From sequence record OR067838.1: a stretch of DNA of 64,000 nucleotides; one strand, written 5' to 3'. The notes beneath the pieces were generated by a model. The model had not been told where the DNA came from. It did no database searches and worked only from the letters and a program-made list of their open reading frames with translations. This stretch comes from Escherichia phage KKP 3954. Below, piece after piece: positions 28,847 through 31,224 of the stretch (its first letter is position 1; each line of letters opens with the position of its first letter). The position numbers were made by a program, and so were the translations under genes.

Positions 28847-28914
28847 AATAAAATCCTCCTAAACTTTATCTTAACATATAAAAAATAATAAGTCAAGTTT
28901 TATTCAATAGATAG

Positions 28915-28937
28915 CAAAAAGCCTCCAATAAGGAGGC
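28915..28937 (-). terminator. rho-independent terminator downstream of tRNA cluster
   Basis: GCCTCC-AATAA-GGAGGC hairpin with U-tract on minus strand. Confidence 0.45.
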
Positions 28938-29053
28938 CAATAAATACTGTTAATTTGAAATGCTTTATTATGATTGTGCGTTAAGGAGTCGCACCCCTCC
29001 ATCTTAGAAGGAACCAGGCAAGGTCTTCAAAGATACCGCTGGCAAGCGATATT

Positions 29054-29132
29054 TGGAGGCGGGAATTGGATTTGAACCAATGATCTCCAGCATATGAAAC
29101 TGGCGAGGACGACCAGACTCCTCTATCCCGCT
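29054..29132 (-). tRNA. tRNA-Met (CAU), CCA encoded
   Basis: Manual fold: acceptor AGCGGGA/UCCCGCC, D-stem GAGG/CCUC, anticodon loop UUCAUAU, T-arm AUUGG-UUCAAAU-CCAAU. Confidence 0.6.
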
Positions 29133-29139
29133 ATCATGT

Positions 29140-29208
29140 ATCCCGTGCTGGATTCGAACCAGCGTCACAATAAATTGTGGATCTCTTATCCTGTAAGTCT
29201 AACGGGAA
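29140..29208 (-). ncRNA. tRNA-like RNA with aberrant anticodon arm
   Basis: Canonical T-arm GCUGG-UUCGAAU-CCAGC and 6-bp acceptor, but the middle folds only as CACAA-UUUA-UUGUG; 69 nt. Confidence 0.35.
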
Positions 29209-29210
29209 AC

Positions 29211-29284
29211 TGGTTGTTTCGACAAGAATCGAACTTGTGTCTCACGATTATCAGTCGTGGGTTCTACCATTGAACTACGAAACA
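29211..29284 (-). tRNA. tRNA-Ile (GAU)
   Basis: Perfect 7-bp acceptor, D-arm GUUC/GAAC, anticodon loop CUGAUAA, T-loop UUCGAUU, CCA encoded. Confidence 0.7.
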
Positions 29285-29290
29285 TTTAAT

Positions 29291-29367
29291 TGGTCGGAAT
29301 TGCAGGATTCGAACCTGCGACCCTACGCTCCCAAAGCGTATGCTCTACCAAACTGAGCTAAATTCCG
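29291..29367 (-). tRNA. tRNA-Pro (UGG)
   Basis: 7-bp acceptor, D-arm GCUC/GAGC, anticodon stem UACGC/GCGUA, loop UUUGGGA. Confidence 0.7.
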
Positions 29368-29372
29368 TTATA

Positions 29373-29448
29373 TGGCTGGTCTGTCTGGATTTGAACCAAA
29401 CCTACGACAGTCAAAGTGTCGTGTGCTACCGGACTACACTACAAACCA
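29373..29448 (-). tRNA. tRNA-Gln (UUG)
   Basis: Acceptor with one G-U, anticodon stem CGACA/UGUCG, loop CUUUGAC. Confidence 0.65.
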
Positions 29449-29546
29449 ATAAATCATTTAATGAAGGGCAACCAGAAGAAGTGTGAGAGAAGGAGAAAAC
29501 CATGAGTAAAAGAGAAAGTTTTCTGGCAACCCTTTATTAAATAATT

Positions 29547-29620
29547 TGGAGCGTTCTACGAGGATCGAACTCGTGCCGCCGACTTGGAAGGACGGAATGC
29601 TACCGCTACACCAAGAACGC
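29547..29620 (-). tRNA. tRNA-Gly (UCC)
   Basis: 7-bp acceptor, T-arm ACGAG-UUCGAUC-CUCGU, anticodon loop CUUCCAA. Confidence 0.65.
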
Positions 29621-29933
29621 CCTATATATTTACTATACTACATTTTACTATTTGTTGTCAAGACTTTTATTGATTGGGACAGTGACGAGTATCCCGTTGG
29701 GTGACTAGCCCTACGTTCGGTAAGCTAACTTAAAATAATACAAAACCAAAGTCAAATATTATTCTTCGTTGCTGTCGATGGGAGAGCCGCTTCTCATTTT
29801 GCCCCATCCAACCCTACTCCGGTCAAGTTTCGGGTGACTCTTTTTGTGATCAACACAATACTAAGAACACTGTCTTTCGAGCAGACCTTGTGCACAGGAA
29901 CGACGATCAATCACAATGCTCTTAATGTTGTGT

Positions 29934-30008
29934 TGGTGCTCCCACACTGAATCGAACAGAGATCCACGGATTACAAAACCGTTGTAATAGCCATTATACT
30001 ATAGGAGC
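29934..30008 (-). tRNA. tRNA-Thr (UGU)
   Basis: Acceptor GCUCCUA/UGGGAGC, anticodon loop UUUGUAA; D-stem weak. Confidence 0.5.
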
Positions 30009-30015
30009 AATGCTG

Positions 30016-30091
30016 GGACTCGGCAGGATTCGATACCTGCAATTCCAGAAGCCTATTGGCGACTGGGGGTTTACCTTAACTCTACAAGTCC
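30016..30091 (-). ncRNA. tRNA-like RNA with 8-nt T-loop and no canonical anticodon arm
   Basis: Perfect 7-bp acceptor and T-stem GCAGG/CCUGC with loop UAUCGAAU; interior gives only short tetraloop hairpins. Confidence 0.3.
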
Positions 30092-30098
30092 ATAATTC

Positions 30099-30184
30099 TG
30101 GCGATGAGTATAGGATTCGAACCTATATTGTTCTTTCGAACACGGATTAACAGTCCGCCGCTTAAACCGTTCAGCCAACTCATC
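30099..30184 (-). tRNA. class-II-shaped tRNA with anticodon GUU (Asn anticodon on Ser-like body)
   Basis: 7-bp acceptor, G73, anticodon stem GCGGA/UCCGU, loop CUGUUAA, long variable arm GUUC-GAAA-GAAC. Confidence 0.45.
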
Positions 30185-30190
30185 TTAATT

Positions 30191-30278
30191 TGGTGGTGAG
30201 TGATGGAGTCGAACCACCCGAATCGCAATGATAACAGATTTACAGTCTGCCCCGCTACCCCTACGGAATTAACTCACC
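30191..30278 (-). tRNA. tRNA-Tyr (GUA)
   Basis: 88 nt with long variable arm, anticodon loop CUGUAAA, A73, CCA encoded. Confidence 0.6.
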
Positions 30279-30409
30279 TAAATACTAATATTTAAATTCT
30301 TTTTAAAATAGCCAGTGTTCGCACCACTAACTATGAGTTATCGGTAAGATGGTGGGGGGCTATCTTCCGAAAGTTTACTCTATTAAAGTAAGCTACATTA
30401 AAAAGAACT

Positions 30410-30495
30410 TGGCGGTAGATGTAGGACTCGAACCTACACGCCGTTTCCGACTACAGTTTAGCAAACTGTCGTGGCTACCATTTCACCAATCTACC
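30410..30495 (-). tRNA. tRNA-Ser (GCU)
   Basis: Long variable arm GUCG-GAAA-CGGC, anticodon loop UUGCUAA, G73. Confidence 0.65.
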
Positions 30496-30500
30496 TAATC

Positions 30501-30591
30501 TGGCGGAAGGAGGGAGAGTCGAACTCCCAAGGCTCTTTCAAGCTCGGCGGTTTTCAAGACCGTTTTCGTCGCCACATCGATTTGCCCTTCC
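30501..30591 (-). tRNA. tRNA-Ser (UGA)
   Basis: 91 nt, long variable arm, anticodon loop CUUGAAA, T-arm GGGAG-UUCGACU-CUCCC; position 8 is C. Confidence 0.5.
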
Positions 30592-30825
30592 ATACTTATA
30601 ATCTAACATAAAATAATGATTGTTGTCAATACTTTTTTAAAACATTTTACCATGAATGGTGACTCCACCAACCCCCGTTCTCCACGAACGGTGCTCTTCG
30701 AGCATTTATGTCTTCTAATATAACCGTGGCCTTTGTTTATAATGTCTGACATACTTGCCTCATTCTCTGCCACCATGATCAGTAGTGGGTTCAAATCACT
30801 TGAGCTAATTCATGTTAAAATGTTC

Positions 30826-30900
30826 TGGTGTCTTTACAAGGAATCGAACCTTGACTAAGAGTTTAGAAGACTCCTGTGCTATCCATTACACCATAAAGAC
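30826..30900 (-). tRNA. tRNA-Arg (UCU)
   Basis: Perfect acceptor, D-arm GUGU/GCAC, anticodon loop CUUCUAA. Confidence 0.7.
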
Positions 30901-30902
30901 GT

Positions 30903-30977
30903 TGGTGGCCCTGGCTGGTTTCGATCCAGCTACCTATCGGTTATGAGCCGACAGCTCTCCCATTGAGCTACAGGGCC
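30903..30977 (-). tRNA. tRNA-Met or Ile2 (CAU)
   Basis: Perfect acceptor GGCCCUG/CAGGGCC, D-arm GCUC/GAGC, anticodon loop CUCAUAA. Confidence 0.6.
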
Positions 30978-31224
30978 ATAAATGTGGTAACAGAGACGCT
31001 GACGATTGTAGAGAACCGCTACATTCTCTAAGACCAAGCCCAACTTTCAGCGTAAAAGTTCTTGAGCCGAGACTATTCCTTTTCCTCTTTGGTAGCTAAC
31101 CTCTGAAGAAGTAGTCTCTAACACTATCCGCAGTGCAAGCCCCTCTTAACAAAAGTCAACGACCCTGTTACCACACTTGATGAACGTATCCTAACATATG
31201 AAGGATACGTTTGTCAATAGTTAT

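Follow-up and report, generated by a model that had tools for sequence, protein, structure and literature searches.

The described arrays of transfer RNA (tRNA) genes to which the present one is best compared are of several kinds. T4-type phage clusters hold eight to ten tRNAs together with the stable RNAs species 1 (rnaC) and species 2 (rnaD), the tRNA regions of T5-like phages (Demerecviridae) hold large sets with small open reading frames (ORFs) and pseudo-tRNAs interspersed, and the GenBank arrays of phAPEC8, phi92 and other Stephanstirmvirinae occupy the very locus considered here, upstream of spanin and terminase genes. We analysed a stretch of 64,000 nucleotides (nt) of Escherichia phage KKP 3954 (OR067838.1; hereafter, the window), which belongs to Phapecoctavirus (Stephanstirmvirinae), a genus of phAPEC8-like Escherichia coli myoviruses with genomes of about 150 kb, and in which twelve tRNA genes lie on the minus strand between positions 29054 and 30977. 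We put at roughly 85% the probability that this array raises the supply of adaptors for codons that the phage uses far more than its host.

The window array and the T4-type clusters share the design of a compact array directed at host-rare A/U-ending codons, and clustering, codon bias and structured spacers were all found here. The array of the T4-like phage Kha5h has ten anticodons, nine of which recur in the window (Gln-UUG, Gly-UCC, Pro-UGG, Ser-UGA, Thr-UGU, CAU, Tyr-GUA, Asn-GUU and Arg-UCU); compared with the T4-type set, the window array is without Leu-UAA and adds Ile-GAU, Ser-GCU and an initiator-derived tRNA. The Asn tRNA of Kha5h is an ordinary class I molecule of 75 nt, whereas that of the window is class II, and, unlike the T4-type clusters, the window array is broken up by promoter-like sites within it and by long spacers with structure. 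The nearest precedent for the spacer RNAs of the window array is the T4 pair of species 1 and species 2 RNAs; for its two tRNA-like elements, TLE1 and TLE2, a precedent is T4-type rnaC, which ends in a T arm and an acceptor-like stem and has no annotated function; beyond a generic T loop, no similarity to rnaC or rnaD was found in the window array. T5-like phages carry the same long-arm tRNA(GUU), with the variable arm GUC-GAAA-GAC, but the T5-like loci examined also contain Cys, Asp, Glu, Phe, Lys and other tRNAs that are missing from the window array, and their gene order and flanks differ. Bacterial and mobile-element tRNA arrays likewise host a long-arm tRNA(GUU), as the window does; these arrays come from unrelated bacteria (Micromonospora, Verrucosispora, Agromyces and various metagenome-assembled genomes) and show no synteny with the phage.

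A reading of the window from its letters alone (the sequence-only reading) had arrived at twelve minus-strand tRNA genes by hand folding, which was borne out by ARAGORN, by Rfam and by the annotation of relatives. ARAGORN with default settings, run on the whole 64-kb window, called 10 tRNAs on the minus strand within 29054-30977 and none outside this interval. The Rfam family RF00005 at its gathering score (29 bits) yielded 11 tRNAs with scores of 39-72 bits, adding Tyr-GUA (match at 30194-30278). Ser-UGA was matched by Rfam only in the tRNA-Sec clan, at 35.7 bits, which is under the gathering score of the tRNA-Sec model (47 bits), and was recovered by ARAGORN once the threshold was relaxed. 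The tRNAscan-SE-based annotation of the near-identical phage vB_EcoM_ASO2A (ASO2A) gives the same twelve anticodons, including Ser-TGA and Tyr-GTA. Against these predictions, the anticodon list of the sequence-only reading (Met-CAU, Ile-GAU, Pro-UGG, Gln-UUG, Gly-UCC, Thr-UGU, Asn-GUU, Tyr-GUA, Ser-GCU, Ser-UGA, Arg-UCU and a second CAU) proved exact, and the CCA end that it had seen in most of the genes is encoded in 12 of 12. All twelve combine an acceptor stem of 7 base pairs (bp), a 7-nt anticodon loop with U33, a T arm and a discriminator followed by CCA, the exception to a regular acceptor stem being the Met-like tRNA with its A1xC72 mismatch; TLE1 and TLE2 have neither a 7-nt anticodon loop nor CCA. 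Separation by only 2-10 nt, as it had described, applies to 5 of the 11 junctions (2-6 nt), and the other six measure 78-313 nt (in series, 2, 235, 5, 131, 6, 90, 313, 98, 5, 6 and 78 nt). The downstream terminator that it had noticed was located at 28938-28920 on the minus strand, with a 7-bp stem containing five G:C pairs and a T run, and ASO2A carries an annotated equivalent. The position of the array between gene modules was also correctly described: on the low-coordinate side, the strand of the array carries a conserved unknown gene, a pair of Rz-like spanins and the genes for the large terminase and the portal, and on the high-coordinate side small unknown ORFs come first and a plus-strand block after them.

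We counted codons in 55 non-overlapping ORFs of the window (14,537 codons, 38.8% GC) and compared their frequencies with those of E. coli K-12. Codons with a matching phage tRNA were enriched 4.0-fold (ACA), 3.7-fold (AGA), 3.0-fold (ATA), 2.2-fold (GGA), 1.8-fold (TAT), 1.7-fold (CCA and AAT), 1.65-fold (TCA), 1.6-fold (AGT) and 1.5-fold (CAA). Compensation for AT-rich codon usage, which the sequence-only reading had suggested, is thus supported for 10 of the 12 tRNAs, whose cognate codons are used 1.5-4.0 times as often as in the host, but not for Met-CAU and Ile-GAU. Seven host-rare codons, summed, amount to 126 per 1000 in 27 structural-side ORFs and 101 per 1000 in the 39 ORFs on the opposite side of the array, compared with about 52 per 1000 in E. 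coli.

The main job of the array would accordingly be the provision of more adaptors for the A/U-ending codons AGA, AUA, ACA, GGA, CCA, CAA and UCA, plus AAU, UAU and AGU, which the phage, at 39% GC, uses at two to four times the E. coli rate and which the host reads with minor tRNAs. The benefit would be greatest for the highly expressed late structural genes, with the array standing at the head of the minus-strand block of lysis, packaging and structural genes. Three promoter-like sites (P1, P2 and P3; Table 1), each of the sigma-70-like form TTGACA...TGTTAGAT or similar, lie just before a sub-cluster, and the motif TTGACA...ATGTTAGGAT is common to P1, P2 and the promoter that follows the terminator. 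As judged from the promoter and terminator motifs only, the array would be co-transcribed as three units, one from P1 (leader, Ile2 and Arg), one from P2 (Ser-UGA, Ser-GCU, Tyr, Asn and Thr) and one from P3 (Gly, Gln, Pro, Ile and Met-like), with a single intrinsic terminator ending all three. Host RNase P and 3' processing nucleases would release the individual tRNAs from these polycistronic transcripts. The analysis shows the genes with their anticodons and conservation, the codon bias, the terminator and the structural conservation of the spacer RNAs; we infer that the promoters are used, that the transcripts are processed, that the tRNAs are aminoacylated and that the array affects fitness.

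Several points weigh against the codon-supply reading or restrict it. The E. coli K-12 baseline of all these comparisons is that of the Kazusa table. Since ATG (0.99-fold), ATC (0.7-fold) and ATT (1.1-fold) are not enriched, compensation leaves Met-CAU and Ile-GAU unexplained. Other codons are enriched and have no phage tRNA here (CTT, 1.9-fold; TTA, 1.4-fold; AAA, 1.4-fold); Leu and Lys tRNAs are present in sister genera. Promoter-like matches in the region show no excess, with 6 observed compared to 7.1 in shuffled sequence. Despite this chance-level count, we favour three transcription units because P2 and P3 are found at the same positions in other genera and the sites have a common motif form. 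A further function, that of keeping translation up when host tRNAs are attacked or lost, is probable for four of the tRNAs: the initiator-derived CAU tRNA, Ile-GAU, Tyr and the Asn tRNA with the long arm.

The two CAU tRNAs are of different types. The upstream one has C4:G69 and C5:G68, as does ileX, and not the U4:A69 and A5:U68 of metT, and C4-G69 is a listed Ile determinant (PMC9976931). Its global identity is 76% to ileX, 65% to metT and 62% to metZ, and its only matches in E. coli genomes carry a tRNA-Ile annotation. It is almost certainly of the Ile2 type, predicted to read AUA after lysidine modification, an assignment that agrees with the threefold excess of ATA codons. The downstream one is closest to metZ (68%, compared with 58% for metT and 53% for ileX). 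A 1-72 mismatch and an R11:Y24 pair are formyltransferase recognition elements (PMC9976931), and both occur in this tRNA, as the A1xC72 mismatch (C1xA72 in metZ) and as A11:U24 in a D stem GAGG/CCUC that resembles the GAGC/GCUC of metZ; also metZ-like are acceptor positions 2-6 (GCGGG) and the T loop UUCAAAU. The anticodon stem CCAGU/GCUGG, with A29:U41, G30:C40 and U31.G39, retains one of the three G:C pairs of initiators (metZ, UCGGG/CCCGA), the discriminator is U73, and the anticodon loop UUCAUAU is unlike that of the host. Because the three G:C pairs are not all present, we call this tRNA initiator-derived only. Between Phapecoctavirus and Justusliebigvirus its conservation is 94-97%, and zero matches to it were found in 5,426 E. 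coli genomes.

Comparison of the phage tRNAs with those of E. coli MG1655 (asnT, thrU, tyrU, glyT, glnU, metT, proM, argU, ileX, serT, serV, ileV and metZ) shows overall identities of 53-76%, and therefore an old phage lineage and no recent host captures. The 7-nt anticodon loop is the same as in the host in 8 of the 12 tRNAs, the exceptions being Ser-GCU, Thr, Gln and the Met-like one, and the anticodon stem is unlike that of the host in 11 of the 12, being the same in Asn only. It has been proposed that phage tRNAs escape tRNA-targeting defences through altered anticodon loops (PMC10264068). Altered loops throughout the phage set were rejected, and the set as a whole bears no signature of loop escape of the proposed type, because 8 of the 12 loops match those of the host; stem or body differences from the host tRNAs could still be of importance.

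These comparisons bear on the possibility that the array is mainly a counter-defence kit, which would replace host tRNAs destroyed by anticodon nucleases or other immune effectors and would be shaped for escape from them. Beside the escape proposal, this view has a published precedent in the T5-family tRNA-Tyr that is reported to rescue phages from the retron Ec78 PtuAB (bioRxiv 10.1101/2023.03.15.532788). The tRNA-Tyr of the array is annotated in relatives as Tyr or as pseudo, has the loop of tyrU and is 84-92% identical to the tRNA-Tyr of T4-like phages. In a Vequintavirus, from another subfamily (L007:1505-1722), this tRNA is 100% identical and the 131-nt element upstream of it is 85.5% identical; their joint presence suggests that the two have spread horizontally between phage subfamilies as a module, which would suit a counter-defence function, as would the divergent stems (11 of 12) and loops (4 of 12), the unusual body of the Asn tRNA and the lack of a codon-usage rationale for the Met-like tRNA and Ile-GAU. 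Against it stand the 8 of 12 loops that equal those of the host, among them Tyr, Asn and Arg, whose host counterparts are classic targets of colicins E5 and D, the 19-nt identity of the Asn anticodon arm to that of the host, and an anticodon set that follows codon bias closely. A defence role of the array, which the sequence-only reading had also offered in the form of tRNA replacement, appears plausible, but we regard defence as its main purpose as rather unlikely.

The array might instead sustain translation once the phage has shut down and degraded the host chromosome and the RNA pools of the host, in which case its content would mirror the host tRNAs that are depleted fastest and not codon bias as such; the idea reportedly goes back to a publication on the tRNAs of vibriophages. 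In its favour, the phage is a myovirus of the large virulent kind, and neither an initiator-like tRNA nor an Ile tRNA for major codons is called for by codon bias, but just twelve anticodons are covered and these are skewed to host-rare codons. We consider this explanation doubtful.

The sequence-only reading had listed the GUU tRNA as "Asn-like", and the hesitation was justified, for this tRNA has class II architecture, which is defined by a variable region of at least 10 nt that forms its own stem-loop (PMC7609411). It has a 3-bp D stem, and its 15-nt variable region forms a 4-bp stem under a GAAA loop. We aligned 8 homologues from three lineages, Stephanstirmvirinae (infecting E. coli, Serratia and Klebsiella), T5-like Demerecviridae and the T4-like Winklervirus X20. 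Across this alignment the four variable-arm pairs are 100% paired and all covary, 99.5% of the cells of the cloverleaf are paired, and 0 of 500 shuffles equalled the observed score. The anticodon arm is identical to that of E. coli asnT over 19 nt. The identity set of Asn for the E. coli synthetase comprises the anticodon bases G34, U35 and U36 and the discriminator G73 (PMC9976931); with its asnT-type anticodon arm and G73, the phage tRNA therefore has the complete set. Recognition by E. coli seryl-tRNA synthetase (SerRS) relies on a long variable arm, G73, G1:C72 and G2:C71 (PMC9976931), of which the first three are present, but pair 2:71 is A:U in the window and in all other Stephanstirmvirinae copies, compared with G2:C71 in the T5-like and X20 copies. 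The possibility that the molecule is a tRNA-Ser with a swapped anticodon is weakened by A2:U71 in place of G2:C71, and further by the many viral homologues that have Asn-type UCC... acceptors, 4-bp D stems and a hairpin-inserted variable region.

To gauge the distribution of this architecture, we scanned genomes with a restrictive pattern (loci L034-L215) and counted a locus as verified where ARAGORN called a tRNA(GUU) of 80 nt or more. Viral contigs of IMG/VR gave at least 120 loci, of which at least 91 were verified and at least 71 were distinct. Among the matches listed, all viral copies lie in tRNA arrays, with a median of ten tRNAs per locus, and the variable-arm stem measures 3-5 bp in 56 of the 71 distinct sequences, GAAA being the commonest loop. 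The 185,579 species genomes gave 64 loci, of which 17 were verified, and 11 of these 17 fall within arrays of 7-36 tRNAs (8 kb). Within these viral loci, the remaining tRNA types that are usually short seldom reach such a length, in a survey that is Asn-biased by construction. No description of a long-arm tRNA-Asn was found in the literature searched. Klebsiella Stephanstirmvirinae (L018:1937-2025; L019:1366-1454) carry an 89-nt class II tRNA that combines the Glu anticodon UUC with A73 and a variable arm capped by GAAA, a second case of the anticodon of a class I amino acid on a class II body. Two further oddities adjoin the Asn tRNA of Klebsiella phage 05F01 (L020:136-355): a miniature element, tRNA-like but reduced to acceptor stem and T arm, and a tRNA-like gene whose 9-nt anticodon loop contains UUA.

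The gaps of the array hold further structured RNAs (Table 1; stability is given there as minimum free energy, MFE). RNAalifold, applied to the leader and its 81%-identical phiWec variants, found 74 pairs, 8 of them with compensatory double changes; the leader is present in 70 Phapecoctavirus records and confined to that genus, and no RNA feature is annotated over it among the records listed. In the three-hairpin element upstream of Tyr, two pairs of the middle hairpin show double changes in 4 sequences each. In TLE1 a capped hairpin replaces the anticodon loop, and only ARAGORN at a relaxed threshold calls it (z = -3.1). The window type and the phi92 type of TLE1 differ by four compensatory pairs, and neither has an anticodon loop. 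TLE1 occurs in 87 Stephanstirmvirinae records and is unannotated in 40 of the 40 listed; it was not found in Klebsiella Stephanstirmvirinae, which have other odd tRNA-like fragments at that position. Just after TLE1, phiWec188 (L005:1863-1979) carries an insert that resembles the sequence before rnaC of Kha5h (GAAACNGGGTCGCTNCC.GTAAGTCGTC...) and is possibly an rnaD-like RNA. TLE2, also seen by ARAGORN at a relaxed threshold, has, where the anticodon arm would be, a 5-bp stem closed by a UUUA tetraloop, and in its alignment to a genuine Vequintavirus tRNA-Arg(UCU) 3 nt of the anticodon loop are missing; its hairpin is disturbed by substitutions among Phapecoctavirus copies, and the element is absent from Justusliebigvirus. 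It is probably a dead, decaying tRNA-Arg gene.

The conserved blocks of the Thr-Gly spacer are kept into Klebsiella Stephanstirmvirinae, with variable inserts between them whose lengths are not multiples of three. The Gly-Gln stem exists in three variants with many compensatory changes and has G.U pairs on the tRNA strand only. On the opposite strand of its loop (29489-29506, plus strand), a perfect ribosome-binding site (AAGGAG-N7-ATG) is followed by an ORF of 8-12 codons, and the product of the locus may be either the tRNA-strand hairpin or a tiny antisense gene. The complement of the CU-rich loop, GAAGGAGAAAACCATGAG, was sought in the window as a trans target and matches the locus itself only. 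After the last tRNA, the 3' element is found in all Stephanstirmvirinae examined (133 records) and ends in a pseudoknot at 29000-28976 on the minus strand (GGAG-GG-GUGCG-A-CUCC-UUAA-CGCAC), which is 98.1% paired, with 3 pairs showing double changes, covariation in both stems and 1 of 500 shuffles equalling the score. Between 28400 and 31600, Rfam at permissive E-values gave only tRNAs and obvious chance matches, leaving the leader, TLE1, TLE2, the pseudoknot and the Thr-Gly spacer unmatched, and the leader, TLE1, TLE2 and the pseudoknot have no RNA annotation in any record examined.

With these elements in view, the array could be read as a mixture, moulded by a conflict over tRNAs, of tRNAs, molecules that imitate them and folded RNAs, in which the Asn body would be a disguise or be charged with serine, TLE1 would be a decoy or inhibitor, and the leader and pseudoknot would be functional small RNAs; we think this improbable. 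If it were true, the disguise would let the tRNA(GUU) escape an enzyme that recognises ordinary tRNA-Asn, or, more radically, charging with serine by SerRS would partly recode Asn codons, and the partner of TLE1 would be a tRNA-binding host factor. It is very improbable that much of the array is evolutionary baggage, that is, recombined and decaying tRNAs with dead tRNAs as spacer elements: the locus is a hotspot of gain and loss (an extra Pro-UGG, an absent Asn or an inserted helix-turn-helix (HTH) gene in relatives), TLE2 resembles a tRNA-Arg with a 3-nt anticodon-loop deletion and a drifting hairpin, and Tyr and the Met-like tRNA are labelled pseudo by tRNAscan-SE in one record, but cloverleaf and CCA are intact in 12 of 12 tRNAs, compensatory changes maintain the stems of TLE1, the leader, the pseudoknot and the long-arm Asn tRNA, and the codon match is tight.

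Table 1. Features of the tRNA array and its flanks, in order of transcription (window coordinates; bits are Rfam scores)
Feature	Position	Strand	Remarks
Promoter-like P1, TTGACA-18-TAGGAT with TG	31188..31217	-	Upstream of the array; putative promoter
Leader RNA, about 205 nt	30978..31182	-	P1 to first tRNA; MFE -77.2 kcal/mol, z = -5.7, 0/200 shuffles as stable
tRNA CAU, Ile2-like	30903..30977	-	64.5 bits; GGCCCUG...CAGGGCC; labelled Ile-CAT in ASO2A
tRNA-Arg(UCU), predicted to read AGA	30826..30900	-	66.3 bits; ARAGORN and Rfam; loop as argU, stem differs
Spacer RNA after tRNA-Arg	30640..30825	-	MFE -53.8 kcal/mol, z = -4.0, 0/200 shuffles; partly kept in phiWec phages
Promoter-like P2, TTGACA-18-TAGATT with TG	30600..30629	-	Kept ahead of Ser-UGA in Justusliebigvirus loci
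tRNA-Ser(UGA), class II	30501..30591	-	Acceptor GGAAG as serT; loop as serT
tRNA-Ser(GCU), class II	30410..30495	-	56 bits; ARAGORN and Rfam
Three-hairpin element upstream of Tyr, 131 nt	30279..30409	-	RNAalifold, 10 variants: 27 pairs
tRNA-Tyr(GUA), class II, irregular D arm	30191..30278	-	Rfam 39 bits; ARAGORN at relaxed threshold only
tRNA(GUU) "Asn", class II body, 86 nt	30099..30184	-	ARAGORN and Rfam; G73, CCA
TLE1, tRNA-like	30015..30091	-	7-bp acceptor, D-arm remnant, 5-bp T stem, 8-nt T loop; no CCA
tRNA-Thr(UGU)	29934..30008	-	55.6 bits; U32 where thrU has C32
Thr-Gly spacer, long hairpin then conserved blocks	29668..29933	-	z = -1.85 only
Promoter-like P3, TTGACA-18-TATAGT	29632..29661	-	11/12 matches; kept before tRNA-Gly in phiWec and Klebsiella phages
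tRNA-Gly(UCC)	29547..29620	-	56.1 bits; loop as glyT
Gly-Gln stem-loop, 12-bp stem	29466..29532	-	z = -5.2; conserved CU-rich loop containing CUCAUGGUUUUCUCCUUC
tRNA-Gln(UUG)	29373..29448	-	54.9 bits; loop unlike glnU at positions 32, 38
tRNA-Pro(UGG)	29291..29367	-	70.8 bits; loop as proM
tRNA-Ile(GAU)	29211..29284	-	72.2 bits; loop as ileV
TLE2, tRNA-like remnant	29140..29207	-	6-bp acceptor, canonical T arm; no CCA; z = -3.1
tRNA CAU, initiator-derived	29054..29132	-	50.1 bits; ARAGORN and Rfam
3' element ending in H-type pseudoknot	28976..29053	-	After the last tRNA
Intrinsic terminator, end of array	28911..28938	-	Stem and T run; annotated rho-independent in ASO2A

The 3.2 kb around the array are 98.7% identical, over the full length, to Phapecoctavirus Escherichia phages, and the region is 98-99% identical in vB_EcoM_01, AV126, ESCO5, ASO2A and others. 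At least 80% of the 3.2-kb region is covered by 63 records, and the tRNAs are annotated in those examined. From these deposited arrays the window differs in nothing of substance. The Ser-GCU tRNA is 96.5-100% identical across Phapecoctavirus and Justusliebigvirus. In Justusliebigvirus and the Klebsiella members of the subfamily 16-19 tRNAs were detected, including Leu, Lys, Phe, Val, Ala and Asp. Parts of the array have been gained and lost among close relatives. Many of these have a second Pro-UGG between Pro and Gln (L003:2484-2558) that is without counterpart in the window, phiWec phages (L004, L005) have a small ORF at the position of the window's Asn tRNA, and in Klebsiella phage ZCKP1 (L012:2015-2356) an HTH "antitoxin" gene is inserted between Thr and Gly.

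The tRNA cluster as such is a genuine, ordinary, textbook feature of large virulent coliphages, and it was already known because its tRNAs are annotated in public genomes of 98.7% identity; being annotated in dozens of near-identical genomes, it adds nothing new. For the question of why phages carry tRNAs it is a clean, conserved example, in which ten of the twelve tRNAs fit compensation quantitatively and the Met-like tRNA, Ile-GAU and the odd Asn body call for another explanation. What merits the attention of specialists is the class II tRNA(GUU), the initiator-derived CAU tRNA and the conserved structured spacer RNAs. The last of these touch on what the non-tRNA RNAs inside phage tRNA arrays are, a question that goes back to the discovery of the species 1 and species 2 RNAs of T4. 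The long-arm tRNA(GUU) breaks the bacterial rule that class II is the province of Leu, Ser and Tyr (and Sec) only, and has turned up repeatedly, in different phage families and in tRNA arrays of mobile elements.

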